A stretch of DNA of 64,000 bases from the IMG/VR virus record IMGVR_UViG_3300037501_000212; one strand, 5' to 3'. The DNA comes from a virus. The position numbers and the translations under genes were made by a program. The notes beneath the pieces were generated by a model. It was not told where the DNA came from. It saw only the letters and a list, made by a program, of their open reading frames with translations, and made no database searches. Below are positions 23,930 to 55,500 of the stretch, one piece after another (the stretch's first letter is position 1; every line of letters starts with the position of its first letter).

Positions 23930-24127
23930 ATGGCAAGCAGACTCAGAGGTCTCACCGAGCGGTCCAACTTCCGCAAGAAGCTGCGGGAGAATCCGGCCAC
24001 TTCTCCGGAAATGCGCGAGCTTTTGGAGCAGCTTGAAGACTCTGTGAATTGGTCTTCGAGTTCTTCGTCTTCGAGCTCCAGAAGCTCTTCGTCTTCGAGC
24101 TCCAGCTCCAGCAGCAAGCTGCCGTAA
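23930..24127 (+). CDS. small protein with a C-terminal poly-serine tail
   Basis: 65 aa with a strong RBS (TAGGAGGAAC...ATG). Ends WSSSSSSSSSRSSSSSSSSSSSKLP (Ser tract 24053-24115). Confidence 0.55.
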   Translation: MASRLRGLTERSNFRKKLRENPATSPEMRELLEQLEDSVNWSSSSSSSSSRSSSSSSSSSSSKLP

Positions 24128-24614: not shown

Positions 24615-25121
24615 ATGTCTTCGTCTTCCTCCAGCTCCAGTTCTTCATGCAGCAGCTCTTCTGAGAGCACCAAAGCAGCTGTTCCTTACTGCACTGAACA
24701 GCATCTCAAGGAAGAACGTCCCAACATCATGCAATATGGTGTTAGCAACTGGGACGACAAAATAGTTGAAGCCAGTGACATCATCAACGAGGACTTGGAT
24801 CTTCGGTGGTACAGAGGTGCTGCTGAAAACCACGGCATGGATTGGCGTGAGTATGCGTTTGATCCAGATCTGCTTTACAGCTCCACAAGGGTGCGCAGGC
24901 TTGCTGTTTACAAATCGCTGGAGTTGATATATCGGTTCTTGACAAAGGACAGCCCAGAAGCAGATGCGTTTGAGCGACAAAGCAAGCTGTATGCAAGCCT
25001 ATACGAAAGGGAGCTCAAGTCACTTACTACTTATGGAGTCGACTACGACTGGGATGCCTCTGGTGGAATCACCTATGAGGAAAAGCGACAGCCAACGTTG
25101 CGACGATTGACGAGGTGCTGA
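24615..25121 (+). CDS. head-tail adaptor-like protein with an N-terminal poly-serine tract
   Basis: 168 aa with a GGAGG RBS. N-terminus MSSSSSSSSSSCSSSSE. The role is inferred from position between the head and neck genes. Confidence 0.45.
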   Translation: MSSSSSSSSSSCSSSSESTKAAVPYCTEQHLKEERPNIMQYGVSNWDDKIVEASDIINEDLDLRWYRGAAENHGMDWREYAFDPDLLYSSTRVRRLAVYKSLELIYRFLTKDSPEADAFERQSKLYASLYERELKSLTTYGVDYDWDASGGITYEEKRQPTLRRLTRC

Positions 25122-26078: not shown

Positions 26079-26639
26079 ATGCCCACTCCCCCGAACACCG
26101 AAAACTACACTCTTGGAAAAGGCCGTCTGAGCATTGCCGAATTTTCTGGTGGTGCACCTGGCGCCTACTACGATGCTGGCAATGCTCCCAGTGTCGAAGT
26201 TGAACCGACCACAGAGCGCTTGCCACATTACAGTTCTCGTTCCGGTGCAAAGCTGAAGGACAAGAATCCTGTCATCAGCAACGATTATAGCATCAACATC
26301 ACACTGGACGAGATGGCCACCGAGAACATCCAGAAGTTCTTGCTTGCCAGCCTATCTGGCGGGATCATCAACATGTTCGGCAATGTGGAGGGAGAGTTTG
26401 CTCTGCGCTTTGTAGAGGACAATCCTGCTGGGCCAAATCGGATCTGGCACTTCTGGCGTGGCACGTTGGCTCCCAATGGGCCGATGCAACTGATTGGAGA
26501 TGAGTGGCGCCAGATGAGCTATCGCTTTGAAGGATTGGCAGATTCTGTGAACCATCCGCTGCATCCTTATGCGATTGCATCTCTGAGCTCCAGTTCCAGC
26601 AAGTCGAGCTCCAGTTCCAGCTCCAGCAGCTCTTCGTAA
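26079..26639 (+). CDS. major tail tube protein with a C-terminal poly-serine tail
   Basis: 186 aa immediately before the chaperone and tape measure genes, with a GGAGGA RBS. Ends LSSSSSKSSSSSSSSSSS. Followed by a strong terminator-like hairpin. Confidence 0.65.
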   Translation: MPTPPNTENYTLGKGRLSIAEFSGGAPGAYYDAGNAPSVEVEPTTERLPHYSSRSGAKLKDKNPVISNDYSINITLDEMATENIQKFLLASLSGGIINMFGNVEGEFALRFVEDNPAGPNRIWHFWRGTLAPNGPMQLIGDEWRQMSYRFEGLADSVNHPLHPYAIASLSSSSSKSSSSSSSSSSS

Positions 26640-32782: not shown

Positions 32783-33273
32783 TGACACCATTCTTTGAAG
32801 ATAGGCTTAACTGGACAAAGGCCAAGCTTGTCATGCAAGAGTGGATGGGCACGCCATACAGACATTTGTGGATGAAGAAGCAAAGAGGAGCTGACTGCTC
32901 ATTGTTTGTTGGTGCTATATTGAAGGAGCTTGGCATCATACGAAATGTAGTGCACGACATATATCCTCCTGATTGGTATGTGCATTCAAACAAGCTAGAT
33001 CTGATAAGAGATGGCTTCGCAGAGCACATAAAAGCTGAGATGGCAAATGGATTTGCGCTTGTGAAGATTGAAAGCATCAAGTGCATAATGCGCGGTGACA
33101 TGCTTACATTCAGCACAGTCAAAACTGGTGTTACCAACCATGCTGGAATCATGCTTGATCCTCCAACCACCTTTGTACATTCGGTTCGTGGTAGAGGCGT
33201 GTCGCTGATGAATTGGGGCAAATACTGGGAAGAAAAGACAACAGCAATATATAGGGTGTGCTGTGGGAACTGA
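32782..33273 (+). CDS. NlpC/P60-family cell-wall peptidase (tail-associated, GTA g14/lambda K-like)
   Basis: PYRHLWMKKQRGADCSLFV (catalytic Cys context) and NHAGIML (His). Start ATG 32782 overlaps the preceding TGA. Confidence 0.7.
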   Translation: MTPFFEDRLNWTKAKLVMQEWMGTPYRHLWMKKQRGADCSLFVGAILKELGIIRNVVHDIYPPDWYVHSNKLDLIRDGFAEHIKAEMANGFALVKIESIKCIMRGDMLTFSTVKTGVTNHAGIMLDPPTTFVHSVRGRGVSLMNWGKYWEEKTTAIYRVCCGN

Positions 33274-35875
33274 ACTGCTGATATTTGGCGCAGTAATGAT
33301 TATAGGTGCAGCAGCTGCATACTTCTTGACTAGACCACCTTCTCTCAAAAGTGACAGAATGAAGCCAGCTACACTTGACTCATTCAACATCACTTATTGT
33401 GAAGAAGGCACAGTTGTGCCTTTGGTCTATGGGAAGGTGCGCAGACCAGGCAACTTCCTTTGGTATGGCAATCTTGTCACTCGTGTTTCTCATGCAAAAG
33501 GTCCTGGAAGACCTGTTGATGGTTACCACTACTATCTTGACATGTGGCAAGGAATCGGAATTGGGCTCCTTGAGATAGTTGGCTGTTATATAGACAACAA
33601 GAAAAAGGATTTCACTGATTCTTACACATACGATCCTGGCAGCATTGGAGTGGAAGGTGTCACCAGGGTCATAGAATCTGGAAGATCCATAACATATAAC
33701 CCTGGTGATTCTGGATACAGGCCTGATGAGGCTGGTGATAACGCCTCTGCAATGAATCCAATTTGCCATGCATTCATGAAGGAGTTCCATCTTGGCTTCA
33801 ATGTTGGCACTGCTCCAACAATTCACTTTGTTGTCAAGAGAAGATTTGACCATGGCTTCCGTGTGAGGCATGCCGAGCTTTCCAATGGCAGCAACCCAGC
33901 TGCTGTGATAATGGATATTCTGTTGCGTGCTGGCTACCTGGATTTTGACTACGACAAATTCAATGCTGCAGCTGACTACTGGTACAACCAGGGATATGGC
34001 ATCAACATGGACTTCTCTGAGCTTGAAGAAGCAAAGTCCATGATACAAAAGGTGTTCAACTATGTTGATGGTGTTTTAAGGAAAAACTCTCTTGGCAAGT
34101 GGGAACTGATCGCATTCACTGACACCGATGCAGCTGTTGGCGACCCATTCATGACGGAGGACTTCATAGAGTTCTCTATTGTAAGACCTTCTTGGGACAC
34201 AGTATATAACCATTTCATAGGAAACTACACAGATGAGAGTGCTGAGTTCACAAGGCGCACAATACGCGTGTCAAATCCGGCTGGCGTTTCAATTGTTGGC
34301 TATCGTCGTACCAAGACGGTTGATCTGACTGCATTCATTGACAAGGAAACTGCCTCAAAGCGACTTTGGGAAATTGCAAAGCGTGTAAGCTATCCTTACA
34401 TGCAAATGCAGTTCAAGACAAACTTAAAGTGGCAAGATGTCAATGTTGGCGATGTCAAGAAGATATACAACACAGAATATGGAATCGATGGTGCAGATGT
34501 TCGCATTATAGGCAAAAGCATTGACGAGATCAACAGCAACACTTTCACATTTGAAGCTGAGCAAATGCTGTCAACCCTGTTTGATGGCTCGTTTGAAGTC
34601 AGTGGCGGCACCCAACAAGTTACTCCAGATTACACACCAACTGCACTTATACACCAGAAGATATTCAGGCTTCCAGCTGCAATCACAGATTTCACTCCAC
34701 AGCCTTGTTATTTGGCATTAGCTGCACGCAACAATGGCACAGAGATATCATTCCAGGTTTGGATTTCTTATGATGGTGGCACCAGCTACTCTTACTATGA
34801 TACATTTACTGTTTGGGCACTCAAGGGATTGCTTACAGCTGACTATGACTCCAGCCACACCAGCATTGATGATCCTGTTGGTATAAGCTTGGATGCTTAT
34901 AGAGAGGATCCTGAATTTGAGACGCTTATCAGCAGCGACTTCCCAACAGCTCGGCGCTATGCGCTTGTGAATGGCGAGCTGATGAGATTTCAAACAGTAA
35001 GTCCTGGCAGTGGCACGACTGATTTGGTGCTTACAAGAATTGTCAGAGGTGAGTATGACACTGATGTAAAAAGCCACTTGAGTGGTGATGAGATATGGCT
35101 GTTTGAGCTTTCTTCCGACAATGTAATGGAAGGCATCACTGCCAACAAGTTTCACATCAAATTGCTTCCATCCTTTGGAGACGAGGTTGTTAGCATAGAA
35201 GATGCTACAGCAATATACTACTCATATAGCTCCAGCTCTCGTAGCTCCAGCTCCGAGAGCAGTTCTTCTTCCAGCAGCAGCAAGGGCAGCAGTTCTTCAA
35301 GCTCCAGCAGCAGTGTTTCTTCGAGCAGCAAGAGCTCTTCAAGCAGCAGTCGTTCTTACAGTTCCAGTTCCAGCAGTCGTGGCAGCAGCTCTTCTCGAAG
35401 CAGCAGTAGTTCTTCAAGCTCGAGCTCAAAATCAAGCTCCAGTTCTAGTTCCAGCAGTTCTTCGAAAAGCTCGAGCTCTCGCAGTTCGAGTTCCAGCTCT
35501 CGCAGTTCCAGCTCTTCATCAAGCAGTCGGTCTTCGAGCAGCTCTTCTAAATTCAGTCAGTCTTCATCAAGCTCTAGCAGCTCTTCAAGAAGTCGTTCTT
35601 CATCAAGCTCCAGCAGCTCTTCGAGGAGCAGTTCTTCTTCCAGTTCAAGCTCTTCAAAGTCAAGCTCCAGTTCCAGCAGCAAGAGCTCCTCAAGCTCTTC
35701 AAGATCAAGCTCCAGTTCCAGCAGCAAGAGTTCTTCGTCAAGCTCCAGCTCTCGCAGCTCTTCAAGTTCCAGCAGTTCGAGCAGCAGGTCGTCTTCCTCT
35801 TCTTCCAGCTCATCAAGCTCTCAGATTCCAACTGGAGAAACAGTGATAGAAGACATTCTTGTCAAGGAATTTTAA
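33263..35875 (+). CDS. host-specificity / central tip protein (J- or GTA g15-like) with a ~198-aa C-terminal Ser tract
   Basis: 870 aa. N-terminal EGTVVPLVYGKVRRPGNFLWYGNL is typical of Phage-tail_3/GTA g15-type proteins. The C-terminal Ser/Arg/Lys low-complexity region spans 35228-35821. Confidence 0.7.
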   Translation: MGTELLIFGAVMIIGAAAAYFLTRPPSLKSDRMKPATLDSFNITYCEEGTVVPLVYGKVRRPGNFLWYGNLVTRVSHAKGPGRPVDGYHYYLDMWQGIGIGLLEIVGCYIDNKKKDFTDSYTYDPGSIGVEGVTRVIESGRSITYNPGDSGYRPDEAGDNASAMNPICHAFMKEFHLGFNVGTAPTIHFVVKRRFDHGFRVRHAELSNGSNPAAVIMDILLRAGYLDFDYDKFNAAADYWYNQGYGINMDFSELEEAKSMIQKVFNYVDGVLRKNSLGKWELIAFTDTDAAVGDPFMTEDFIEFSIVRPSWDTVYNHFIGNYTDESAEFTRRTIRVSNPAGVSIVGYRRTKTVDLTAFIDKETASKRLWEIAKRVSYPYMQMQFKTNLKWQDVNVGDVKKIYNTEYGIDGADVRIIGKSIDEINSNTFTFEAEQMLSTLFDGSFEVSGGTQQVTPDYTPTALIHQKIFRLPAAITDFTPQPCYLALAARNNGTEISFQVWISYDGGTSYSYYDTFTVWALKGLLTADYDSSHTSIDDPVGISLDAYREDPEFETLISSDFPTARRYALVNGELMRFQTVSPGSGTTDLVLTRIVRGEYDTDVKSHLSGDEIWLFELSSDNVMEGITANKFHIKLLPSFGDEVVSIEDATAIYYSYSSSSRSSSSESSSSSSSSKGSSSSSSSSSVSSSSKSSSSSSRSYSSSSSSRGSSSSRSSSSSSSSSSKSSSSSSSSSSSKSSSSRSSSSSSRSSSSSSSSRSSSSSSKFSQSSSSSSSSSRSRSSSSSSSSSRSSSSSSSSSSKSSSSSSSKSSSSSSRSSSSSSSKSSSSSSSSRSSSSSSSSSSRSSSSSSSSSSSQIPTGETVIEDILVKEF
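35228..35821 (+). repeat. Ser-coding low-complexity repeat (in frame within the J-like gene)
   Basis: About 198 codons, nearly all Ser with sporadic R/K/G/E. The six Ser codons are interleaved. Confidence 0.9.
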
Positions 35876-35931
35876 TATTTACTTTTGAGATGAAAAGAGG
35901 TAAACTTATACAATCCTTGTGAAGGTGAAAA

Positions 35932-36168
35932 ATGGGAAGGATCTTAAGACTTCTCGAAACGACTGACATTATGTCTCAGGCTGAAGCAAGCAATCTGTTC
36001 GCTGCAGCTGATGTTGGAACAACTGAACTAAGAGCAGCACTTGCACCACTTACACAGTACAGTGCAAACAGGAGGAAGCGACTGTTCAGAGCTGTGGTGC
36101 AGATCAGGACAATGTCGTCGAGCTCTCGCTCGAGCTCAAGCAGCAGCTCAAGCAGCAAACTGTCGTAG
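35932..36168 (+). CDS. small protein with a C-terminal poly-serine tail
   Basis: 78 aa ending TMSSSSRSSSSSSSSSKLS. It has the same SSSKL(P/S) terminus as 23930-24127 and lies immediately upstream of the large GT gene. Confidence 0.45.
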   Translation: MGRILRLLETTDIMSQAEASNLFAAADVGTTELRAALAPLTQYSANRRKRLFRAVVQIRTMSSSSRSSSSSSSSSKLS

Positions 36169-36199: not shown

Positions 36200-39103
36200 A
36201 TGAAAGTAGAGAAGATGCTCCAAAGAGAGATATCCACACTTCCGATGGATGTCCGCTCCCGCACGGACTGTGAGAATGTGGCTGTCTTGTTGCAATTTGC
36301 TGATGGAACTTACCACCATATATTGCCATCCCACGCTGTATCAAAAGCAATCATTGAAGCCTGCGCAGAGCACATTGGTGCAGCTGATATCATCATCAAA
36401 GCTGAGAATGCAGCCTGCAAGCACCATGATGATTTTGCCAAAACTGTTGCCACACATGTTGCTGCGGACGAGTTGCCAGATGCTGTGATCTTCAAGAACA
36501 GACAAGCAATTGGTGACATTCTCTGCATGACTGGTGCTGTGCGTGACTTCAAGAATGCTTATCCAAATGTGCGCGTCAATGTCATCACCACAGCAATGCA
36601 TATTTGGGATCACAATCCAGCCCTTGACAGATCGCTGAACGACCATTCGAAAATTCTTGAAGTTGGCCCAGGCTTTGGCACAAATCGTAGCAATGCTTGG
36701 AACATAAATCTGATTGATGCTTTTCGGATGGACTTCGAGAACAAGCTGAAGGTCAGGATAGAAAAAGGTCCTGTCAGGCCTGACATTTGGATGACAAAGG
36801 AAGAATACGAAAGGCCACCTATCATCGAAGGTCCGTATTGGATCATCATCAATGGCGGAGAACCTGGTTGGCCATCAAAGCAGTATCCATACTGGCAGGA
36901 AGTTGTTGATCAGCTGTCTGGAAAGATCAAGTTTGTGCAGCTTGGTCTAAAAGGACATCCTTGGCCTTTGCTTGATGGTGTTGTCAACATGGTTGGAAAG
37001 ACCGAGGATCGCAACACTGGCATACGAGACATGTTCAACTTGTTTTTGCATGCACAAGGCTCCATCGGTCTTGTCTCGATGCACATGCATCTCTCGGCTG
37101 CATTCGGGAATCCATGTGTTGTTGTTGCTGGCGCTAGGGAGCCTGCATGGTTCACCCAGTACTTCGGCCACCAATATCTGCAGACAAACGGAACCTTGCG
37201 CTGTGGGCTGCACACTGCTTGCTGGAAGTGCAAGATAGAAGGTTGCCAATACCATGCAGAGGCTCCTCGCAAACAGATCAAGGGCAAGGATGGCAACCTT
37301 CTGCCAGTGCCAAAGTGTGTTGACATAATCAGTCCTGATGAAGTTGTTGATGCTGTGCTGAAGTACTACCAGGGTGGCAGGTTGGAGTTTGGCAAAAAGG
37401 TTCCGAACAAATTCTTCTCGAACATTGCCAAAGCTCCTTCTACTGTTGTTTCTGTTCCTAGAGCAGCAGAGGCTTCCAAGGAAGACAATGACTTTGTAAC
37501 CAGTGCTGGATTCACTTGGGGTGGTGGATCATTGACCGACAGAGACTGGGTCTTCATCAAAGGGCTGTTGAAGGCTTACGATGTCAAGACTGTGTTGGAG
37601 TTTGGTGCTGGCCTTAGCACGTTGCTTTTTCAGAGAGAGGTTGACAGGGTGATATCCTACGAGACTTCTCCAGGATGGATCAAGAAAATTAGCTCTTTGA
37701 TTGATCCCAATCGTGGCAGAGTGCTGCATTGGAATGGTGAGTACTTCAAGATGGTTGGGATGCAGTGCGACCTTGCCTTTGTGGATGGTCCATCTGGTGG
37801 GCAAAGCAGGGAGTTCTCAACAAAGATTTCATCAGAGCTTGCAGATCTTGTTGTCGTGCATGATGCAGGAAGAGGTCCAGAGAAAGAGTGGCAGCAGAAA
37901 TACTTGGCTGAAGAGTTTGATATGATCAGCAAGGGCGGCCATCGCTGCCATTTCTGGGTCAGAAAGGACAGTGCCAAGAATCCCCACAGAAACAAACCAA
38001 GCCAACTTGTGGCTGCTCCTTTGAGGATAGAAAATCCTGCTGCAAGAGCTCCTGATGTTGGTCTTGCAATGGATGCTGGCTGCGACCTTGAAGACGAAAG
38101 TGTTAAGACAGCCATCATGATTACTACCTGCAGAGGATATGGTGGCAGTGAGCGCAGCAGCATACAATTGATGCGGATGTTGCAAGAGCAAGGATATGAG
38201 GTGTATTTGTGTCCGACCGGAAACATCAGTGGCGAGTACAGAGCTAACATACCAGCTGGTGTCATTGTGATGAATTGGGAACAGCTGAAGGAAGCTGCTG
38301 TTGATCTGGTTGTTTTTTACACATCTGACACAATATGGGGATTCAAGGAGCAGCGCTATTGTGAGGTGATGCCTACCATACTTGCTGATCGCAAGGTGAT
38401 GGTGCTCAACTATCAGCTGGGTGGTGCAGGAATTGTTCCTTGGACAATCGGGTGGGATCTGTACATGTTTCTGAACACCACCAAGGAGAAGGAATTCTTG
38501 GCACTTGCTCCTGGCTCTAACACAAAGGTGCTTGCTCCTGCAACTGACTTGACCAAGTTCTTTGAAGTGGTGCCAGATTACAACAGCAACTTGCGCTTGA
38601 TAAGGCACAGCTCGCAAGGTGATGCCAAACACCCAGACTACACAAACGACATGATCCTTGACATACTTGGGATCTATCCTGGCACCGAGTTCTACTTCAT
38701 GCCGGCTCGGTCAGACTGCATGGAACATCCTGCAGTCCATCGCCACCGCAAGAATGTGCCACCAGTGTACGAGTTTCTTTCTCTTGGCAACTGCTTCTTC
38801 TACCATTTGCCTCCAGGCTACCAGGATCAAGGGCCCAAGGTGATATGTGAGGCAATGGCAGCTGGTCTTCCGGTGATTGCAGACAATAGATATGGTGCAA
38901 AAGACAGAGTCACACCAGACACTGGCTGGCTTATAAACTCTCCTGATGAAATACCTGCAATCATCCGTGAAATAAAGGACAATCCTGGCTTGCTTGAGAA
39001 GAAGGGCAAGGCTGCTCGTGAAAGAGCCAAGCAGTTATTTGTTATGGAACGCTGGATTGATGCAATCGTTGGAGAAGAGGTCAATGCGCAGCAGCTATCA
39101 TGA
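36200..39103 (+). CDS. three-domain enzyme: GT9 heptosyltransferase-like + class-I methyltransferase-like + GT4 glycosyltransferase
   Basis: Start at MKVEK with an AAAGAGGAG RBS. About 36480-37370: GT9-like (IGDILCMTGAVRDFKNAYPNVRVNVI; WPSKQYPYWQEVVDQLSGKIKFVQLG; IGLVSMHMHLSAAFGNPCVVVAG; CWKCKIEGC). About 37500-37960: VLEFGAGLST...DLAFVDGP. About 38100-39100: GGSERS...KVICEAMAAGLPVIA (GT-B/GT4). Confidence 0.75.
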   Translation: MKVEKMLQREISTLPMDVRSRTDCENVAVLLQFADGTYHHILPSHAVSKAIIEACAEHIGAADIIIKAENAACKHHDDFAKTVATHVAADELPDAVIFKNRQAIGDILCMTGAVRDFKNAYPNVRVNVITTAMHIWDHNPALDRSLNDHSKILEVGPGFGTNRSNAWNINLIDAFRMDFENKLKVRIEKGPVRPDIWMTKEEYERPPIIEGPYWIIINGGEPGWPSKQYPYWQEVVDQLSGKIKFVQLGLKGHPWPLLDGVVNMVGKTEDRNTGIRDMFNLFLHAQGSIGLVSMHMHLSAAFGNPCVVVAGAREPAWFTQYFGHQYLQTNGTLRCGLHTACWKCKIEGCQYHAEAPRKQIKGKDGNLLPVPKCVDIISPDEVVDAVLKYYQGGRLEFGKKVPNKFFSNIAKAPSTVVSVPRAAEASKEDNDFVTSAGFTWGGGSLTDRDWVFIKGLLKAYDVKTVLEFGAGLSTLLFQREVDRVISYETSPGWIKKISSLIDPNRGRVLHWNGEYFKMVGMQCDLAFVDGPSGGQSREFSTKISSELADLVVVHDAGRGPEKEWQQKYLAEEFDMISKGGHRCHFWVRKDSAKNPHRNKPSQLVAAPLRIENPAARAPDVGLAMDAGCDLEDESVKTAIMITTCRGYGGSERSSIQLMRMLQEQGYEVYLCPTGNISGEYRANIPAGVIVMNWEQLKEAAVDLVVFYTSDTIWGFKEQRYCEVMPTILADRKVMVLNYQLGGAGIVPWTIGWDLYMFLNTTKEKEFLALAPGSNTKVLAPATDLTKFFEVVPDYNSNLRLIRHSSQGDAKHPDYTNDMILDILGIYPGTEFYFMPARSDCMEHPAVHRHRKNVPPVYEFLSLGNCFFYHLPPGYQDQGPKVICEAMAAGLPVIADNRYGAKDRVTPDTGWLINSPDEIPAIIREIKDNPGLLEKKGKAARERAKQLFVMERWIDAIVGEEVNAQQLS

Positions 39104-39677
39104 AAACAACTACGGAGCAGTGCTGCAGACTGCAGTTCGTACAACAGCTCCGAATGTCATTGTAGAGCTTGGTGTTCTGGATGGCTACAGCACTCTGCAT
39201 CTTGCGCGTGGTGCAAAGTGGCTTACGGAAAACAAGGGAATGTGCTCGCACCTATTCTCTTTCGACCTGTTTGATGATTACAAGTACAAGCATGGTGACA
39301 AGGAAAAGGTGCAAGCAATGCTTGAGCAGAAGAAGGTAGCCAACTTCGTAACTCTTGAGAAGGGCGATGCCTTCCATGTTCACAGCAAGTTTGGCGATGA
39401 CTCGGTTGGATTGCTGCACATTGACATCAGCAACGATGGCAATGTGGTGTGCGAGCTGCTGAAGCTGTGGTGCTCCAAGCTGAAGCAAACTGGTGGATGG
39501 GTTCTTCTTGAAGGAGGATCAAAGGAGAGGGATTGCATCCCATGGATGCAGAGGTACAGCAAACGCAAGATAGGCGAGGCTTTCTGTGAAGAGTTTGTCT
39601 TGAAAAACTTCACTCCTCCGATGGTTCTCCAAAAGTTCCCTTCCATGACAGTGCTTCAAAAAAGGAGCAAACCATGA
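39084..39677 (+). CDS. class I SAM-dependent methyltransferase
   Basis: VIVELGVLDGYSTLHLA (motif I) and LLHIDISND. Start ATG 39084 overlaps the previous gene by 20 nt. Confidence 0.65.
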   Translation: MRSSYHENNYGAVLQTAVRTTAPNVIVELGVLDGYSTLHLARGAKWLTENKGMCSHLFSFDLFDDYKYKHGDKEKVQAMLEQKKVANFVTLEKGDAFHVHSKFGDDSVGLLHIDISNDGNVVCELLKLWCSKLKQTGGWVLLEGGSKERDCIPWMQRYSKRKIGEAFCEEFVLKNFTPPMVLQKFPSMTVLQKRSKP

Positions 39678-40351
39678 CAATCAACGCTGGCAAGTTGGTA
39701 AAACTGTCTTACAAAAACATCACAGATGCAGTTGATTCATTTCATGAATTCTATGAGATGAACAAGTTGTGGGAGAAGACCACATGGCTTGGGCAGCAGA
39801 TGTGGAAGCTGCCATTTGATGCAATCGTGCTGCAGGAGATCATATATGCTACCAAGCCTGATCTTGTAATAGAGACAGGCACTGGCATGGGTGGCTCAGC
39901 GCTATTCTATGCAAGCATCTTGCACTTGCTTGACAATGGAATGGTGCTGACAATAGATGAGAAGCGCAAATTCCACAATTTTGGTGATACAACTGCAGCC
40001 AATCGCATCAACTTCATAGAAGGATCCAGCATTGCAGACAAAACGCTGGAGCATGTGAGACGCATTGCATCTGGCAGGCGCTGCATGGTTATACTTGACT
40101 CTTGGCACACCTTTGAACATGTGCAGAAGGAGCTGGAGGCTTACAAGGAGTTTGTCTCGCTCGGCTGCTACATGGTTGTGGAAGACACCCATGTCAATGG
40201 CCACCCAGTGCAATGGGAATGGGGTGCTGGTCCATACGAGGCTGTGCAGCATTTCATCGAGAAATATCCAGGAGTGTTTGTGGTTGACAAACAGAGGGAG
40301 CGCCACATGATGACATTCAACCCTTCTGGATATCTGAGGAGGATGATATGA
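39674..40351 (+). CDS. CmcI/cephalosporin-hydroxylase-family methyltransferase (sugar O-methyltransferase type)
   Basis: WLGQQMWKLPFDAIVLQEIIYATKPDLVIETGTGMGGSALFYA...ILDSWHTFEHV...VVEDTHVNGHPV follows the CmcI family pattern. Confidence 0.75.
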   Translation: MTINAGKLVKLSYKNITDAVDSFHEFYEMNKLWEKTTWLGQQMWKLPFDAIVLQEIIYATKPDLVIETGTGMGGSALFYASILHLLDNGMVLTIDEKRKFHNFGDTTAANRINFIEGSSIADKTLEHVRRIASGRRCMVILDSWHTFEHVQKELEAYKEFVSLGCYMVVEDTHVNGHPVQWEWGAGPYEAVQHFIEKYPGVFVVDKQRERHMMTFNPSGYLRRMI

Positions 40352-41445
40352 TACCGCTATTCAAAGTATTCATGGATGGAGCAGTTGACACTGCGCTTTC
40401 CAAAGTGCTTCACTCTGGCTACATTGGCCAGGGCGAGAAGGTTCGGCAGTTCGAGGCAGCGCTTGGCAAGCGATTTGGCAACTGCAATGTGCTGGCATTG
40501 AGTGCTGGCACCCATGGGTTGCACCTTGCATTACGGCTGGCTGGAGTGGGAAAAGGTGATGAAGTAGTCACGACGCCACTGACTTGCACTGCCACCAACT
40601 GGCCTATTCTGATGCAAGGTGCAACACCAATTTGGGCTGATGTAAAGGACGACTTCAATGTTGATCCTGAATCAGTCAGAACAGCTATAACAGATCGCAC
40701 CAAAGCTATCATCTGTGTGCATTGGGGTGGCTATCCATGCGACATGGCGGAGTTGACAAAGATTGCTTACGACAACAATCTGGTGCTGATTGAGGATGCA
40801 GCCCATGCCTATGGAAGCGACTACAAGGGCATTCCAATAGGCAGCATGCCAGGCACCGATTACACCATGATGAGCTTTCAAGCAATCAAGCATCTGACAA
40901 CAGTCGATGGTGGTGCTCTTTTCTGCAAGACCAAGGAGCAGTATGACAAGGCCAAGTTGCTGCGCTGGTATGGTATTGACAGAGAAGGACCACGCACTGA
41001 CTTCCGCTGCGAGCAGCCAATAGCAGATTGGGGATACAAGTACCACATGAATGATGTCTGTGCTACTATTGGTCTGCAAAACATGGCAGCAGCTGACAGA
41101 AACATAGAAAGATGCAGAGCCAATGCTGCTTTGTACGACAGAGAGCTTGCAGGTGTGCCTGGGTTGAAGATTACTCAAACAGCTGATGATCGCAAGAGCT
41201 CTTATTGGCTGTACACAATCATGGTCGAGAATCGTAGCGAGTTCTGCTACATGATGGGAAGCAGAGGCATAGCAGTCAGCAGAGTGCATGAAAGAAATGA
41301 CAAGCATCCTTGCACCTCTGACTTTTGCTGCTTCCTTCCTAAGCTCGAAGAAGTTGTAAGCAAGCAAATTTGCATACCAGTAGGCTGGTGGCTTGGTGAT
41401 GACCAAGTTGAGCACATCATAGAGTCAATCAAAGGAGGATGGTGA
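40348..41445 (+). CDS. DegT/DnrJ/EryC1/StrS-family PLP-dependent sugar aminotransferase
   Basis: GYIGQGEKVRQFEAALGKRFG, SAGTHGLHLALRLAGVGKGDEVVTTPLT, EDAAHAYGS, and the SFQAIKHLTTVDGG Lys motif. Confidence 0.85.
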   Translation: MIPLFKVFMDGAVDTALSKVLHSGYIGQGEKVRQFEAALGKRFGNCNVLALSAGTHGLHLALRLAGVGKGDEVVTTPLTCTATNWPILMQGATPIWADVKDDFNVDPESVRTAITDRTKAIICVHWGGYPCDMAELTKIAYDNNLVLIEDAAHAYGSDYKGIPIGSMPGTDYTMMSFQAIKHLTTVDGGALFCKTKEQYDKAKLLRWYGIDREGPRTDFRCEQPIADWGYKYHMNDVCATIGLQNMAAADRNIERCRANAALYDRELAGVPGLKITQTADDRKSSYWLYTIMVENRSEFCYMMGSRGIAVSRVHERNDKHPCTSDFCCFLPKLEEVVSKQICIPVGWWLGDDQVEHIIESIKGGW

Positions 41446-41930
41446 TGTTTTCAGCTTGGCGAAACAGGTTGCTGCTTGACTATGCACAGTGGATCATAGA
41501 CCACCCACTTACAAGAGAGATGGGTGCTCCAATTGATGGAGAAGGTCCAGTCTATTTTTCTGCAATTGATGATTCTGAGATAGAAATTTGCAAGGCTCTT
41601 TGGGAAGGCAATGACTACTTGCGCATTCCTCCACCCAGAAGGATTTGGAACAGCCAATTCTGCAATGACTTTGACAAGTGGCGCGATGCATTCTGGAGAA
41701 TGGCAAATGCATTGGCAGATGGGGTTGAAAGGATACACACAGAAGGCATTGACAAGTTCCACTTGCCAGTGTTTGGCAGAGGTATTCAGCTGGTGCTTGC
41801 TGCTCAAGCAGTGCAGCTCAAAAGCGTAACAGTGGGGTGCTACAAATTCCCGTACGCAGTTGAACAGTTTTTGGAATATGCCATTCGCAGGCCAGAAATA
41901 TCTTACATCAAGGAGGTGTTGGTATGGTAG
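41439..41930 (+). CDS. hypothetical protein
   Basis: 163-aa ORF overlapping both neighbours within the sugar island. Confidence 0.5.
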   Translation: MVMFSAWRNRLLLDYAQWIIDHPLTREMGAPIDGEGPVYFSAIDDSEIEICKALWEGNDYLRIPPPRRIWNSQFCNDFDKWRDAFWRMANALADGVERIHTEGIDKFHLPVFGRGIQLVLAAQAVQLKSVTVGCYKFPYAVEQFLEYAIRRPEISYIKEVLVW

Positions 41931-42577
41931 AGGAGAGGAAAGAGCATCCAGGATCCAGAGAGCTTTATGATCTGGTTGCAAACTGGCATCCTGGGCCATT
42001 GTTTTTCAGCAAGACCTTCGGGTGGGAGCGATGGGGCTTGCTTGGTGTGCTTGCAGATTTCTTCTTGCACTACACACCTGGATGCATCATAGAGATTGGT
42101 GCATGCGAGACGTCCATATTCTTCTCTGCACTGGCTGAGAAACATGGTCGTAACGTTTACCACTGCGACATACAACAGTCAATCATCGAGAACTGCAAGA
42201 CCGTGCCAGGTTACTTTGGCAAGAACTCAAGAACCTTTGTGATGCCATCAGATGAGTTCTTTGCTTGGTACAGAAAGGAAATGCCGGAAAGAGCAGCATT
42301 GGTATTTATTGATGGCGATCACATGTACGATCAGGTTCGCAAGGACTTCATCAATGCACTTGCTGTGCTGGATGAGGAAGGTGGTTACATATTCTTGCAC
42401 GACACAGCTCCGCCAGATGCTGAATGGATAGGTCCTACTCGCTGTGGCACCGTCTACAAACTGCGCAGGGAGATAGAGCAAAGCGGAAACTTCGACATCT
42501 TCACATTCAGGAACTCTGCTTGGGGTGTTGGGCTTAGCATTGTTCGCTTGCGTGTGAATGGATACGATGGTGACTGA
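41924..42577 (+). CDS. class I SAM-dependent methyltransferase (Methyltransf_24-like)
   Basis: CIIEIGACETSIFFSALA, LVFIDGDHMYDQVRKDF, GGYIFLHDT. Confidence 0.65.
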   Translation: MVEERKEHPGSRELYDLVANWHPGPLFFSKTFGWERWGLLGVLADFFLHYTPGCIIEIGACETSIFFSALAEKHGRNVYHCDIQQSIIENCKTVPGYFGKNSRTFVMPSDEFFAWYRKEMPERAALVFIDGDHMYDQVRKDFINALAVLDEEGGYIFLHDTAPPDAEWIGPTRCGTVYKLRREIEQSGNFDIFTFRNSAWGVGLSIVRLRVNGYDGD

Positions 42578-43581
42578 TGGCAACTAACTTCCTACCAAAC
42601 TGGGTCCACAACAGGAAGCCATTCGAGTCTAAGATTGCAATACTTGTGACTGGATGGCCTGGCCACATCAAGTGGATGAAGTACACTCTAAGCAGCTACG
42701 TTGCAACTGGCGCATTTGTTCTTCTGGCTTACGACAGCCACATCAAATTTGACGATTACAAAATAAGCGTAGCTGATCACTTTCCACCGATAGATGTGTT
42801 TGTCTTGCCTCATGCTGTTGTTTTGAAACACGCCACCTGGGACGCGGACAAGCGCAATGGCTGGCTTTGGAACTTCATATATGGAGCACAACAGCTCTTA
42901 GGCTTCGGTTTCGAGCATATTCTGACGATCAACAGCGACTGCGCAATTGACAAGCCTGAAGGGATTCACCAGCTGATTGAGTTGCTTGGCTCTGCAGACA
43001 TGATGTCCCAGTCGGTTGAGTATAATGACGCCGAGCAAAAGGATCCCAAGAGTATACACACTTGCAGCATGCTGTTTCGACGCTCGGCATTGGACTCAGT
43101 GTGTTCCTACTTCAAAAAGGAGATGAGCCATGCCGGACCAGAATCGTACAGTCCAGAGCTGCTGCTGCTTGAGGCACTCAAAGAGCTTGGGCTCAAGTTG
43201 CAGCCAACACCCAAAGTGCCTTTGTTCCCAAAAGGACACCCATTCGAAGGAGCAGTTGACCACTACCAGTCCTACAATGAGGATTCGACATGGAAGGAGG
43301 TCATCGGATTCCGTAACTTGTGTGCTGAGAACGATACCGCAGGCATAGAGAGACTGCCACCATTGCCAGGCAAGTATTTTGATCTGCGAGATGGTGGCAG
43401 GCTGCTGCCAGGGTATGAGAGGGAGAGCTTATACCACTACTACTTGTCCGGAGGGGATCTCCGCTATCTCTGGATGTTTTGGGACAAGGATGAAGACTCA
43501 TGGTACGACAGGAGAAACTACTCCGTAGACCATTACGGCTCCCAGCCAGTCTACAATACAAAGGGGGACACCATCGTATGA
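42577..43581 (+). CDS. hypothetical protein, paralogue A (candidate GT-A-like transferase)
   Basis: 334 aa. Clearly related to the next ORF (ILVTGWPGH/VLLTSHPGN; LLAYDSH/VLAYDNY; NSDCAIDKPEG/NGDCVLEKPEN; GFRNL/GFRHI). Confidence 0.55.
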   Translation: MATNFLPNWVHNRKPFESKIAILVTGWPGHIKWMKYTLSSYVATGAFVLLAYDSHIKFDDYKISVADHFPPIDVFVLPHAVVLKHATWDADKRNGWLWNFIYGAQQLLGFGFEHILTINSDCAIDKPEGIHQLIELLGSADMMSQSVEYNDAEQKDPKSIHTCSMLFRRSALDSVCSYFKKEMSHAGPESYSPELLLLEALKELGLKLQPTPKVPLFPKGHPFEGAVDHYQSYNEDSTWKEVIGFRNLCAENDTAGIERLPPLPGKYFDLRDGGRLLPGYERESLYHYYLSGGDLRYLWMFWDKDEDSWYDRRNYSVDHYGSQPVYNTKGDTIV

Positions 43582-49507: not shown

Positions 49508-49515
49508 GGTGGCTT

Positions 49516-51014: not shown

Positions 51015-52556
51015 ATGGCATGGGTAACTAACACTTGGAATACACCTGGAGTTACTAACTGGACTGTTCCTGCTGGTGTTTCCAGTATACGTATTCGAGT
51101 ATGGGGTGCAGGTGGCGGAGGTGGTGGAGCCAACAACAATGCATATTACAAAGATGCAGGTGGCGGTGGTGGCGGAGGCGGCTTTGCAGAGGTTACCAAT
51201 TACGCAGTTACTCCTGGTTCAAACCTTTCTATAACAGTAGGCAATGGAGGCAACAGAGGAGGCATATCTGGCACTTCGGGTGGTAACGGCTCTTTGTCTT
51301 CTGTGAGAGACGGCAACTTAGCTTTCATATGTGCAGCCAATGGAGGACAAAGAGGTAATGGCGGCAATATGATTCCTCCAGCTGCAGGAGGAAATGGTGG
51401 TATAGGCAATGCCGGAAATATTTTTAAAGCTGGCGGATCTGGAGCCTACGCCAGTGGAGACAGAGGCGGATCTGGTGGTGGTGCTGGCGGTGCCAACAAC
51501 AATGGCAATGGAAATAATGGAAATGGCAGGCCAGGAATTAACACAGGTTATCCGTCTTTAGGAGGTGCTGGAGGAAACGCAGACAGCAACGGCAATGATG
51601 CTGGAGGCAGAGGCGGCAACTCTGTAATGAACAACAACGCTTCTGCCAACACAGATGGTACTTGGCCTGGAGGCGGTGGTGGTGGACACCATGGCAATGG
51701 AGACACTGGGTATGGAGGCTATGGCGCTGCTGGTGGAGTTGTCATATTTTACAGCATTGCCAGTTCCAGCAGTCGGTCTTCAAGCTCCAGTTGTTCATCT
51801 TCCAGCTGCTCATCTTCAAGCAGCTCTTCAAAATCAAGCTCCAGTTCCAGCAGCAAGATACCGTCCATTTCCAGTTCCTCTTCATCAAGCAGCTCCAGCA
51901 GCAGTCAAGGATCATCTTCGAGCAGTTCAAAAAGCATGTCATCCAGCTCGAGCAGCATGTCTGCTGCTTGGCAAATTGAAGATGTTGTTCTAACAGGATC
52001 TGTCAGCAGCAGTTCCAGCAGCAGCAAATCGTCTTCTTCTTCCAGCAGCAGCCGTGGAAGCTCTTCTTCATCCAGTTCCAGTCGGTCAAGCAGTTCTTCG
52101 TCTTCAGTTTCAAGAAGCAGTTCTTCGAGCTCAAGCAGCATGTCGTCTTCATCCAGCTCCAGTCGCTCAAAGAGCTCTTCGTCTTCAAGCTCCAGCAGCC
52201 ACGCAGCTTTGACAACTGTTTGGGGTCAATCAACTGGATACAGCGAGGGCATTGCCAAGCCAATGGCTGGAAATTGGGATGTAGAAGCTGGCAGCATCAG
52301 TGGCTCTGGCGATTCTGAGAAGATGGTGCTTTCCAGTTACGAGTCTTACAGTGAATCAGATCCTTTCAATATCGGGAATATGGTTGGAGTTATCAAACTC
52401 AATCAATACAATGCTGGCTCCGGCAACGCTCCGACCATATACTACAAGACTGGTGTCACGCAAGCGTCTTGTGAGCAAGACCTTTGGCACCTTTACAACG
52501 GAGTCTCATTCAACTGCAAAGGTTGGGTAAAGATTCGGTTGTATAAGGCTGCCTAA
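51015..52556 (+). CDS. glycine-rich-domain fibre-like protein with an internal Ser tract
   Basis: N-terminal WNTPGVTNWTVPAGVSSIRIRVWGAGGGGGG...GGGGGGGGFAEV module. Ser tract at 51762-52199. C-terminal module shared with 46846-47904. Confidence 0.65.
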   Translation: MAWVTNTWNTPGVTNWTVPAGVSSIRIRVWGAGGGGGGANNNAYYKDAGGGGGGGGFAEVTNYAVTPGSNLSITVGNGGNRGGISGTSGGNGSLSSVRDGNLAFICAANGGQRGNGGNMIPPAAGGNGGIGNAGNIFKAGGSGAYASGDRGGSGGGAGGANNNGNGNNGNGRPGINTGYPSLGGAGGNADSNGNDAGGRGGNSVMNNNASANTDGTWPGGGGGGHHGNGDTGYGGYGAAGGVVIFYSIASSSSRSSSSSCSSSSCSSSSSSSKSSSSSSSKIPSISSSSSSSSSSSSQGSSSSSSKSMSSSSSSMSAAWQIEDVVLTGSVSSSSSSSKSSSSSSSSRGSSSSSSSSRSSSSSSSVSRSSSSSSSSMSSSSSSSRSKSSSSSSSSSHAALTTVWGQSTGYSEGIAKPMAGNWDVEAGSISGSGDSEKMVLSSYESYSESDPFNIGNMVGVIKLNQYNAGSGNAPTIYYKTGVTQASCEQDLWHLYNGVSFNCKGWVKIRLYKAA

Positions 52557-52567
52557 GGTCTTGACCG

Positions 52568-55500
52568 ATGCCGTGGGGCAATAACATATACACAAATGCG
52601 GGTAACGTTACCTGGACTGTTCCGTCTGGTGTTACCAATGTATTGGTACGAGCCTGGGGTGGTGGCGGTGGCGGCGGTGGTGGTAACGCTACTCATGGCG
52701 GTGGAGGCGGTGGTGGTGGTGGCTTCGCACAGTTTAATGCGATGGCTGTCACTCCAGGCCAAAACCATGTTTTGACTGTTGGTAATGGCGGCAATGGAGG
52801 AGCTGCCAATGCCAATGGTACTGCTGGTGGCAACACAATTATCCGCTGGAGTAATAACGCCAATGCGATGATTGCTGCCAGAGGGTCTGCTGGCCAGCGA
52901 GGTGCTAATGGCGCTGGTGGTGCTGGTGGAACTGTCGCAACATCTACTGGAAACTTGGAGTATGCTGGTGGCAACGGAGCTGCCAAGGCCACTGTAAATC
53001 CGGGTTCTGGCGGTGGTGGTGCGGGTTCTGGTGGCAATGGCTCGGCTGGATCCAACGGAGCCAATGCAGCTGGCGGTGCTGGTGGAGCTGCAAACAACAA
53101 TGCTGTCATTCCAAGTGTAGCTGGCGGTGCCGGTGGCAATGCCGTACTTAATGGTAATGGCGGCAATGCACTCGGTCCGGGCGGTGGTGGTGCTGGTGGT
53201 GGCGCTACCAACAAAGTAGGTGGCAGAGGTGGCGTAGGTCGTATCGAAATTTATTGGAGTATCGCTTCCAGTTCATCATCTTGCTCTTCTTCCAGTTGCT
53301 CCTCTTCATCTTGCAGTTCCAGCAGTTGTTCCTCGTCATGTTCAAGTTCCAGTAGCGGCACTTTGAGTTCTTCGTCCAGCTGCTCAAGCTCCAGTTGCTC
53401 AAGCTCCAGTTGCTCATCGTCGAGCAGCAGCAGCAGCAAACCTCCTTCTCCTTACGGATGGCAAACCGTAGTTTATACTCCAGGCAATTACACATGGACA
53501 GTTCCAGCTGGTGTAACTGGAGTAAGGATTCGTGCATGGGGTCCTGGTGGTGGCGGTGGTGGTTACAATGGCAATGCAGCCACTCCTGGAGGAGGTGGCG
53601 GAGGTGGTGGTTTTGCACAAGCCAACAACTTTGCAGTTACGGCCGGACAAAACCACAACATCGTAGTTTCTCCAGGAGTTGCGGGAGGAGCTGCTAATAG
53701 CGATCCTTCGTATGCCAACAACACGACTTTTTATCATACAAACAATGCTATTGTAATCCAAGCCACTTGTGGAAACAGAGGCAGAGTAACAGGGGCTGGT
53801 GGTGGATTTGGAAATGGCACCATAACTGCTTGGACCAATGTTTACAAAATGGGCGGCAATGGTGCCAACAACAATACAGCGACATATTCTGGTGCTGGTG
53901 GTGGTGGAGCCGGCACCACTGGCAATGGGTCGCCTGGCAACAACAACGGCTCGGGAGCTGGAGGAGGCGCTGGAGGTCTTGGCGACAATGGATCTACTGA
54001 TGTAGCGAACGGAGCTGGTGGCAACGGAGGAAATGCAGCCAGTGCAGGGTTCTTTGTGGGTGGTGGAGGTGGTGGAGGGAACAGTCTGTTCCGTGCGGGA
54101 GGAAATAGTGCAGATGGCAAGTTAGAATTGTACTTTAGTGTTCCGAGTGTTAGCAGCTCCAGCTCTTCATCGTCCAGCAACAGCAGCTCCAGTTCTTCAT
54201 CCAGTTCTTCATCAAGCTCTCCAGCAGCAGTAAGCAGTTCGTCCAGCTGCAGCAGCTCCAGCTCTTCATCGTCCAGCAACAGCAGCTCCAGTTCTTCATC
54301 CAGCTCCAGCAGCAGCTCTTCAAGCAGCTCCAGCTCCAGATCAAGCTCGAGCTCCAGTTCTTCTTCGTCCAATTCTTCGTCCAGTTCTTCAAGCAGCTCG
54401 AGTCGGAGTTCTTCAAGCAGCTCCAGCTCCAGATCAAGCTCGAGCTCCAGTTCTTCTTCAAGCAGGTCTTCATCCAGTTCTTCATCAAGCTCCAGCAGCA
54501 GTTCTTCAAGTAGCTCCAGATCAAGCTCGAGCTCCAGCAGCTCTTCAAGCAGGTCTTCATCCAGTTCTTCATCCAGCTCCAGCAACAGCTCTTCAAGCAG
54601 CTCTTCATCAAGCTCCAGATCAAGCTCCAGCAGCAGTTCTTCAAGCAGCTCCAGATCAAGCTCTAGCTCCAGCAGCTCTTCAAGCAGGTCTTCATCCAGC
54701 TCTTCAAGCAGTTCGAGTCGTAGCTCTTCATCCAGCTCTTCAAGCAGTTCGAGTCGTAGCTCTTCATCCAGTTCTTCAAGCAGCTCCAGATCAAGCTCGA
54801 GTTCCAGCAGCTCTTCAAGCTCAAGCAGTTCGAGTCGTAGCTCTTCATCCAGTTCTTCAAGCAGTTCGAGTCGTAGCTCTTCATCCAGTTCTTCAAGCAG
54901 CTCCAGATCGAGTTCGAGCTCCAGTTCTTCTTCAAGCTCAAGCAGTTCGAGTCGTAGCTCTTCATCCAGCTCTTCAAGCAGTTCCAGATCGAGTTCGAGC
55001 TCCAGTTCTTCTTCAAGCAGGTCTTCATCCAGCTCTTCAAGCAGTCGTTCTTCTTCAAGCAGCAGCCGTTCTTCATCCAGCAGTTCCAGCAGTTCCATCC
55101 AAAGCAGCTCCAGCAGCTCAAGATCTTCTTCGAGCTCCAGCTCCAGCTCCAGATCAAGCTCGAGCTCCAGCAGCTCTTCAAGCAGGTCTTCATCCAGTTC
55201 TTCAAGCAGTTCGAGTCGTAGCTCTTCATCCAGCTCTTCAAGTAGCTCCAGATCAAGCTCGAGCTCCAGTTCTTCTTCAAGCAAGTCTTCATCCAGTTCT
55301 TCAAGCAGTCGTTCTTCTTCAAGCAGCTCCAGCAGTTCCAAACAAAGCAGCTCCAGCAGTTCCAGATCAAGCAGTTCCAGTTCTTCTTCAAGCAGGTCTT
55401 CATCCAGTTCTTCAAGCAGTTCGAGTCGTAGCTCTTCATCCAGCTCTTCAAGCAGTTCCAGATCAAGCTCGAGCTCCAGTTCTTCTTCAAGCAGGTCTTC

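Follow-up and report, generated by a model that had tools for sequence, protein, structure and literature searches.

A viral three-module enzyme with a TibC-like glycosyltransferase domain and its candidate poly-serine substrates in uncultured phages

A stretch of 64,000 nucleotides from the IMG/VR virus record IMGVR_UViG_3300037501_000212 (the window, by which we mean the whole stretch that was analysed) carries a gene at 36200..39103 for an enzyme of 967 residues with three catalytic-type modules, in a genome in which seven proteins bear poly-Ser tracts. The question raised by this locus is which substrate such an enzyme would act upon. The answer that we favour, with modest confidence, is that a cytoplasmic trifunctional enzyme O-glycosylates the poly-Ser tracts of virion proteins, such that a TibC-like module would prime the serines, a glycosyltransferase family 4 (GT4) module would extend the glycan and an S-adenosylmethionine (SAM)-dependent module would methylate it. 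The evidence comprises the predicted folds and conserved residues of the modules and the co-occurrence of the gene with poly-Ser open reading frames (ORFs) across phage loci. Coordinates refer to the plus strand unless otherwise indicated.

Architecture and fold of the enzyme

The enzyme ORF extends from the ATG at 36200 to the stop codon at 39101-39103 and encodes a protein of 108 kDa with an isoelectric point of 6.3, in which hydropathy analysis predicted no transmembrane helix. A GAGGAG Shine-Dalgarno sequence is found 7 nt 5' of this ATG, and the position of the start methionine is common to all aligned homologues, so that a longer TTG start at 36041 is not needed. A database search with the enzyme retrieved 399 proteins at E≤1e-3, at least 120 of which are full length, share 44-61% identity and keep all three modules, in agreement with the sequence-only reading of the locus, which had proposed a single ORF with three catalytic modules. 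Two alignments were employed, A1 with 39 homologues and A2 with 116 sequences. The former displays a mean column identity of 50% and more than 100 invariant columns, which are arranged in three blocks separated by variable linkers. Together with the many full-length homologues, these blocks argue for a conserved family and against a fortuitous fusion or an artefact of assembly. The family bears the automatic name "ADP-heptose:LPS heptosyltransferase/glycosyltransferase" at JGI, and UniProt and BFVD contain auto-annotated proteins of uncultured phages named "Glycosyltransferase Aah/TibC" (924 residues) and "RfaF". One family member (P0105; 1340 residues) has precomputed intein Pfam domains (PF14890, Intein_splicing, and PF14528, LAGLIDADG_3) within the enzyme, and a T4-like carrier contig possesses an intein gene with the same two domains a few kb 5' of the enzyme gene (L002:2483-4705). 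Inteins commonly occupy conserved sites of important proteins.

The motifs from which the modules had been proposed were all located at the expected positions, namely IGDILCMTGAVRDFKNAYP at residues 104-122, MHLSAAFGNPCVVVAG at 296-311, CWKCKIEGC at 341-349, LEFGAGLST at 466-474, FVDGP at 527-531, GGSE at 648-651 and EAMAAGLPVIA at 884-894, except that the motif quoted as "K.WP" actually reads GWPSK(227)QYP. The proposed domain boundaries likewise agree with the structure predictions. These further revealed an extra conserved N-terminal domain of ~73 residues that had gone unnoticed (residues 1-73; 36200..36418). It is an α/β domain with an HHILP motif, modelled by AlphaFold2 (AF2) as two short strands plus helices with a predicted local distance difference test (pLDDT) score of about 90-95. 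Its residue H39 does not vary in A1 and shows a conservation of at least 90% in A2, and the domain possibly contributes to substrate recognition.

Residues 93-400 (36476..37399) are predicted to form a TibC-like domain of the GT-B fold and the GT9 clan, with catalytic-type residues D106 (within IGD), K227 and R276. Since single-sequence and profile searches of the PDB returned GT4 and weak methyltransferase matches only, and none to GT9, a comparison at the level of the fold was needed. An AF2 model of residues 1-440, computed from 116 sequences (pLDDT 90), was compared by Foldseek with 350,542 PDB chains. The best match was TibC (21 chains, 4rb4/4rap; E 8e-11 to 4e-9; template-modelling (TM) score 0.50/0.56), followed by the Veillonella GT9 protein 3tov (E 1.5e-8), WaaC (8e-8) and WaaF (4e-7). 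Pfam model PF01075 (GT9) matches 11 of the 39 relatives at E≤0.01 (best 2e-7), and the assignment to GT9 is founded on these matches and on the fold. Fold and motifs place the first module in the GT9 clan, while its sequence scores lie at or below threshold. Two chains of the plant chloroplast supercomplex NDH-PSI (9grx_1 and 7wff_a) also match the GT9-like model (E 4e-5 to 9e-5), suggesting that a fold like that of GT9 there serves a structural and not an enzymatic purpose.

The residues of this module were compared with those of TibC from enterotoxigenic Escherichia coli H10407 and of WaaC and WaaF from strain K-12. Identity to TibC is 15-18%, and hhalign provided residue correspondences that are usable in the C-terminal lobe (C-lobe) only, which in the case of TibC span 180 columns (E 0.0024; probability 12%). 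The signature of the N-terminal lobe, β1-x5-GD, was aligned by eye, with VIFKNRQAIGD106 facing LISFPTGTLGD110 of TibC and KTSSMGD13, such that IGD106 corresponds to SMGD13 in WaaC and to WVGD13 in WaaF. In TibC, D110 is the proposed catalytic base (PMC4358343). Within the weak hhalign alignment, K227 is paired with K230 of TibC, a ligand of the β-phosphate, and TibC residues T226 and R286 are paired with G223 and M278, the invariant R276 being two residues off, beside a gap. The heptose contacts W305 and P300 of TibC are not conserved, as they align with H297 and V292. Residues D106, K227, R276, C335, C341, C349 and C373 are all invariant in A1, and the four cysteines also in the 116 sequences of A2. 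Together with C344, which is not among the invariant residues, they form a cluster (37202..37318; pLDDT 83-92) that represents a putative metal knuckle in a C-lobe insertion at the site of the iron finger of TibC, which is built by C339, C342, C358 and C370 (PMC4358343). Three of the four invariant cysteines are paired with iron-finger residues in the same weak alignment (probability 12%), namely C335 with C342, C349 with C358, and C373 with C370, while the spacing differs (C-x5-C-x7-C-x23-C in the enzyme vs C-x2-C-x15-C-x11-C in TibC). The comparison with TibC on the one hand and WaaC/WaaF on the other, for which the sequence-only reading had called, thereby yielded TibC as the top fold match and four invariant cysteines at the iron-finger site.

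The middle module (residues 441-590; 37520..37969) is predicted by AF2 and Foldseek to be a class-I SAM-methyltransferase-like Rossmann domain. The model has pLDDT values of 94-98 over residues 431-600 and gave 201 PDB matches at E≤1e-3, headed by O-methyltransferases of the CCoAOMT/COMT type (E 4e-6; TM score 0.5-0.58). In motif I, E467-x-G469-x-G471, both glycines are invariant among the 39 sequences of A1 and E467 is present in 38; the acidic position at the end of β2, 488, is glutamate in 35 and aspartate in three. Also conserved are D529-G-P and H554-D555. The Pfam and NCBIfam methyltransferase models found no match in the enzyme at E≤1, and the links by sequence are weak, to PDB entry 2yvl in a profile search (E 0.0013) and, by hhalign, to a Methyltransf_24 protein encoded in the window at 41924-42577 (E 0.001). 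For another Methyltransf_24 protein, encoded at 39084 and tried as kin of the module, no alignment was obtained. The methyltransferase-like Rossmann domain initially proposed is thus retained as a predicted class-I SAM-methyltransferase fold.

The C-terminal module (residues 641-967; 38120..39100) is a GT-B domain of the GT4 type (Glycos_transf_1), with the Gly-rich loop GGSERS and the motif [DE]876-x7-E884. It matches PF00534 with 30.6 bits, above the cut-off of 26.4 bits; 37 of the 39 relatives are hit by this model too, and a profile search of the PDB retrieved TreT, BshA and PglA (E 4e-7 to 1e-5). G648-G649 and [D/E]876-x7-E884 are invariant in the 39 sequences. The GT4 assignment of the initial reading therefore holds above the Pfam threshold. 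Judging from its sequence, the module is a regular GT4, and both it and the middle module look catalytically intact.

Association with poly-serine proteins

Of the seven window proteins that bear poly-Ser tracts, the gpJ-like tail tip protein (33263..35875; PF13550; phrog_1101, E 7e-60) has a tract of ~200 residues with arginine or lysine every ~10 residues (DNA 35222-35821). The enzyme gene had been described as lying directly after that of the tip protein, but a 78-residue ORF with the Ser tail …SSSSRSSSSSSSSSKLS (35932..36168; a gene in the JGI record, too) sits between the two. C-terminal Ser tails are also present in the major tail (tube) protein (26079..26639; phrog_807, E 5e-27) and in a small ORF directly 3' of the major head gene (23930..24124; …SSSSSSSSSRSSSSSSSSSSSKLP), and a 168-residue protein from the head-tail joining region (24615..25121) has the N-terminal Ser tract MSSSSSSSSSSCSSSS…. 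The remaining two are a protein with a Gly-rich domain and internal poly-Ser (51015..52556; PF21722, E 1.5e-19) and a protein of 1120 residues with two Gly-rich domains (52568..55930; PF21722), which consists of 48% serine (538 Ser). The tube and tip proteins, as components of the particle, and the two Gly-rich proteins, which are fibre-like, are candidate substrates; the other poly-Ser proteins are encoded in the structural module.

All six Ser codons, of both codon boxes, occur in the window tracts, whose DNA is made up of tandem duplications that are degenerate, keep the frame and have periods of 12-135 nt. The use of all six codons and the preservation of the frame, over up to ~2,300 codons across loci, indicate that serine is selected at the protein level. 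Some of the tracts of 51015-52556 and 52568-55930 contain regularly spaced cysteines (SSSSC repeats), and others an arginine every ~11 residues. The Ser tails of 23930-24124, 26079-26639 and 35932-36168, which are unrelated proteins, are very similar to each other, and two of them end in …SSSKL[PS], a hint that they represent a common C-terminal tag and not linkers of independent origin. Several long ORFs, in another frame or on the opposite strand, overlap the poly-Ser genes, at 53842-55953 (minus strand; 703 residues), 35202-35846 (plus strand; 214 residues) and 54663-55556 (minus strand; 297 residues). They are rich in Ala, Leu, Gln and Glu, and are almost certainly read-throughs of the Ser-codon repeats and not genes.

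Co-occurrence was assessed by counting poly-Ser ORFs, defined as having at least 14 Ser within 20 residues, within 10 kb of the enzyme gene. They were found at 26 of 42 enzyme loci vs three of 42 control loci (Fisher p = 1.4e-7), and at 29 of 46 enzyme loci when those from metagenome-assembled genomes (MAGs) were added; two of the three control ORFs are 53-residue minus-strand ORFs. The carriers span GC contents of 0.29-0.60, and the pattern holds across this range. At one locus (L013), two giant poly-Ser ORFs with tracts of up to ~2,300 residues are found on either side of the enzyme. Half of the poly-Ser proteins tested (5/10) match PHROG tail or virion-structural families. Poly-Ser ORFs also occur at four (L095, L096, L098 and L101) of the seven loci with available DNA that encode distantly related, differently arranged or stand-alone GT9-like proteins. 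The association thus tracks the GT9-like domain and not the fusion as such.

Poly-Thr tracts were observed in three relatives found through their terminase, with no enzyme in the fetched range (L052:16248-20078, L053:12693-18455 and L060:14063-17395). These tracts, with runs of 10-37 Thr, belong to giant proteins that contain repeats of the LamG-like and NHL/RCC1-like types. Homopolymeric tracts of hydroxy-amino acids may characterise this phage group in general, with a different transferase possibly serving poly-Thr.

Several observations weigh against poly-Ser glycosylation by a TibC-like primer. While the GT9 module of the sequence-only reading is borne out by the GT-B fold, the matches to TibC, WaaC and WaaF and the PF01075 hits of the relatives, the window protein itself scores 13.4 bits against the 22-bit cut-off of PF01075 (E 0.048). 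The NCBIfam model "autotransporter strand-loop-strand O-heptosyltransferase" found no match in the enzyme at E≤1, and hhalign of the family profile against single sequences gave probabilities of 12% for TibC, 13% for WaaF and 1% for WaaC. The control loci, which lack the enzyme and were chosen by similarity to the terminase of this phage or to gp32, are a non-random sample. In 16 of the 42 enzyme loci, mostly of low GC content and T4-like with the gene beside gp32, no Ser/Thr tract lies within 10 kb, also at a relaxed threshold, so another acceptor may be modified there or the substrates may be encoded far away. Poly-Ser could also be a plain flexible linker. Finally, the serine-rich-repeat adhesins of Gram-positive bacteria are primed at Ser by a GT4 enzyme, GtfA, and either glycosyltransferase module may be the primer here. 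Taken together, the proposal of poly-Ser as the substrate gains indirect support from a strong co-occurrence, in which the enzyme or its GT9-like domain accompanies virion proteins with poly-Ser in many lineages of phages, and which is not seen in the T4-like carriers.

The absence of poly-Ser genes near the enzyme in these T4-like carriers would suit a target in the host envelope, which we consider unlikely. According to this alternative, heptose or hexose plus methyl groups would be added to the lipopolysaccharide (LPS) core, the O-antigen or the capsule, which could block superinfection or prevent re-adsorption of the progeny to debris, and the poly-Ser tracts would be unrelated linkers. 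GT9 and GT4 are classic LPS-core families, WaaC, WaaF and the Veillonella GT9 protein are strong fold matches (E 1e-8 to 4e-7), the MHLSAAxxxP motif is nearer to that of WaaF/WaaC than to TibC, and the JGI family name designates an LPS heptosyltransferase. However, TibC ranks above every LPS enzyme in the fold search, and the four-Cys insertion and the extra N-terminal domain are features of the TibC type that WaaC and WaaF do not have. Moreover, the near-absence of the family from cellular genomes (four MAG contigs among 185,579 species) would be odd for an LPS enzyme acquired from a host, the association with poly-Ser is strong, and the gene lies within the virion module in the window.

The precedent of GtfA bears on a second alternative, in which the roles are swapped, the GT4 module priming Ser as in the serine-rich-repeat adhesins and the GT9-like module extending the glycan or adding a branch sugar. 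The GT4 module is intact, and GT4 Ser primers are known from Gram-positive systems. We nevertheless judge this arrangement distinctly improbable, as poly-Ser ORFs are found beside stand-alone GT9-like genes whose neighbours are methyltransferases only (L095, and L101 on a 7.5-kb contig), and the nearest structure, TibC, is itself a Ser primer.

Distribution and genomic neighbourhood

Relatives of the enzyme are encoded by 40 IMG/VR loci. Among the species-representative genomes, four of 185,579 encode one, all of them on MAG contigs (DPANN or Asgard archaea, "uncultured bacterium") that are probably mis-binned viral contigs, and a tblastn search of 50,697 GenBank phage records with the enzyme found no match. 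The family looks virus-restricted and uncultured. A phmmer search with residues 1-440 against 1.84 billion representatives retrieved 1,401 proteins at E≤1e-3, 277 of which at ≤1e-30. These relatives of the GT9-like core include stand-alone proteins of 300-340 residues and other fusions, such as with Methyltransf_24 (P0151), with GT2 and GT1 (P0176; L097:8031-11438) and with an Evr1/Alr sulfhydryl oxidase (P0200; L098:6763-9924). Their loci are phage contigs, with genes for a P22-type portal, capsid, Mu gpT and tape measure, and have methyltransferase and sulfotransferase neighbours. Sulfotransferase genes recur in the clusters of the GT9-like core and are also found in L003.

In T4-like contigs of 147-240 kb, gp32 is followed by the enzyme, Methyltransf_24, CmcI, a 161-residue ORF, a short-chain dehydrogenase/reductase (SDR) and DegT. 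This position by gp32 and other DNA-metabolism genes, and the radical-SAM and aminotransferase genes near the enzyme in the window, would fit DNA hypermodification, i.e. glycosylated hydroxymethyl-pyrimidines, and phage GT-B enzymes place diverse sugars, including heptose, on 5-hydroxymethylcytosine (bioRxiv 10.1101/2023.12.21.572611). We hold such a role, or one in the synthesis of free or lipid-linked polysaccharides, to be very improbable: no gene for a thymidylate-synthase-like hydroxymethylase, a C5-methyltransferase or a TET/JBP protein was found among ten replication-region ORFs or beside the enzyme in the locus tables, T4 β-glucosyltransferase is not among the fold matches, and the neighbours are nucleotide-sugar tailoring enzymes.

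The window belongs to a siphovirus, with identified genes for terminase, portal, scaffold, major head, major tail and tape measure, gpL/gpK/gpI-like proteins and the gpJ-like tip protein. The enzyme gene, 3' of the tip gene, opens an island of ~15 kb. Three conserved partner genes lie directly 3' of it (39084..41445) and encode a Methyltransf_24 protein (39084-39677), which overlaps the enzyme stop by 20 nt, a CmcI/rhamnosyl-O-methyltransferase-like protein (39674-40351) and a DegT/PseC-like sugar 4-aminotransferase (PseC/ArnB/LegC-like; 40348-41445), in the order that is also seen 3' of the enzyme gene in the T4-like contigs. The island further encodes a second Methyltransf_24 protein, the one that aligns weakly with the middle domain of the enzyme (41924..42577), a LamG protein, an SDR of the nucleoside-diphosphate-sugar 4,6-dehydratase/epimerase type (47838-48803), an ORF without recognised family (48800-49507), the third and last Methyltransf_24 protein (49504-50052) and a radical-SAM protein (50049-51008), and is followed by the two Gly-rich-domain proteins. 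For eight island ORFs, neither Pfam nor PHROG provided a match, also when E values up to 0.5 were admitted. Genes of the ADP-heptose pathway (GmhA/HldE/GmhB) were not recognised in the window, and the SDR at 47838 scored 66.9 bits with the heptose epimerase model, far under the cut-off of 274.6. The ORF at 42577-43581, considered as kin of the extra glycosyltransferase in the T4-like cassette, proved unrelated. A scan for promoters and terminators found sites no more numerous than in shuffled sequence; one sigma-70-like site, TTGAGA-18-TACAAT (10/12), is located at 35885-35914, where an AT-rich gap separates the tip gene from the 78-residue ORF. No tRNA genes were found, and host inference failed.

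Proposed function and precedents

In the mechanism that would accompany Ser O-glycosylation by the enzyme, the TibC-like GT-B module, in which D106 would serve as the base and K227 would bind the phosphate of the donor, would transfer the first sugar from a nucleotide sugar to the Ser hydroxyls, while the putative four-Cys metal knuckle and the N-terminal domain would help to hold the protein substrate. The GT4 module would then add a further sugar and the SAM-dependent module would O-methylate the glycan. The neighbouring genes (SDR, 4-aminotransferase, CmcI-type, Methyltransf_24 and radical SAM) might supply or tailor an unusual amino-deoxy, methylated sugar. Having no transmembrane helix, the enzyme would act on cytoplasmic nucleotide sugars, where virions assemble. 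We infer protein Ser as the acceptor, the priming module, the donor sugars and the order of the steps from these data; as to heptose as the sugar, ADP-heptose would be just one candidate donor.

TibC attaches heptose to numerous serines of TibA and AIDA-I. Its place of action is the cytoplasm, where it targets a protein of repetitive sequence at many Ser positions (PMC4358343). TibC/Aah, the bacterial autotransporter heptosyltransferases (BAHTs; PDB 4RAP and 4RB4), provide the best fold match to the viral enzyme, which has in common with them the aspartate of the GD signature, a lysine aligned with the phosphate-binding one, an extra N-terminal domain and a cluster of four cysteines at the same insertion point of the C-lobe. 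However, its N-terminal domain is α/β in the AF2 model, whereas that of TibC is a β-barrel, and in contrast to the BAHTs it is viral and fused to a methyltransferase and a GT4 module, has a different Cys spacing and is not detected by the NCBIfam BAHT model. Its presumed substrate is homopolymeric Ser rather than a β-helix repeat, and whereas a BAHT gene is found next to its autotransporter substrate, the enzyme has phage tail and fibre proteins with poly-Ser as neighbours, and no autotransporter. On the strength of these sequence comparisons, it would work like a BAHT yet is no member of that family. WaaC and WaaF (CAZy GT9; PF01075) resemble it in the fold, the GD…YP signature and the MH(L/V)xAAxxxP…G motif, but they have neither the Cys cluster nor the N-terminal domain, use membrane-located Kdo2-lipid A as their substrate and are encoded on the chromosomes of Gram-negative bacteria.

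The closest analogy for the substrate is provided by the serine-rich-repeat adhesins. On their long Ser-rich tracts, GT-B enzymes (GtfA/GtfB plus extending glycosyltransferases) install O-glycans at high density in the cytoplasm, which are then extended stepwise. These systems differ in their GT4 primer, their accessory Sec export and the lack of a fused GT9-like or methyltransferase module. The combination of a GT4-type transferase with a SAM O-methyltransferase on a growing glycan is shared with WbdA/WbdD of E. coli O9a and with ManT and the methyltransferases of mycobacterial methylmannose polysaccharide, and the mannosyltransferase of the latter pathway (7qsg) is among the weak structure-database matches. 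As both build lipid-linked or free polysaccharides, the likeness is by analogy only.

To our knowledge, phage virion glycosylation has so far been shown in a few mycobacteriophages only. There, according to the account in which the work is cited, the phages encode glycosyltransferases that place glycans on extended C-termini of capsid and tail-tube subunits (Freeman et al. 2023, Cell Host Microbe, as cited in PMC12619734). As far as that account allows a comparison, the window resembles these phages in the C-terminal Ser tails of its tail tube, its tip protein and several small proteins. It differs in its unrelated lineage, in presumably other hosts, in far longer acceptor tracts of up to hundreds or thousands of Ser, and in the TibC-like trifunctional fusion. 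By analogy, this system may be regarded as the nearest biological precedent. Our literature search found no paper that ties phage poly-Ser tracts to a glycosyltransferase and none that describes a fusion of GT9, methyltransferase and GT4, in line with the initial remark that the fusion was undescribed; the family is nonetheless abundant in metagenomes and already auto-annotated.

A broader proposition, which we put forward tentatively and rate at slightly less than an even chance, is that many environmental phage lineages (sipho- and podovirus-like, Mu-like and possibly T4-like) display mucin-like poly-Ser "brushes" on their tube, tip, fibre and decoration proteins. These brushes would measure tens to thousands of residues and would be hyperglycosylated, in the cytoplasm of the host, by virus-only TibC-like Ser-O-glycosyltransferases. 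The window enzyme would then be a self-contained fusion for priming, extension and methylation, accompanied on its travels by a set of genes for nucleotide-sugar tailoring. A virus-only TibC-like family paired with poly-Ser across many phage lineages is unexpected. If true, the enzyme would provide a compact, soluble, single-polypeptide tool for the dense O-glycosylation of Ser-rich tags, and an explanation would be at hand for the homopolymeric Ser tracts that structural genes of phages encode, which are otherwise puzzling. It would also mean that uncultured environmental phages possess a far larger and unrelated system of virion glycosylation, in which a virus-restricted enzyme family is paired with genetically obvious poly-Ser substrates. 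This would afford a new picture of phage surfaces, with bearing on their stickiness to particles and mucus, resistance to proteases and grazing, receptor shielding and antigenicity.

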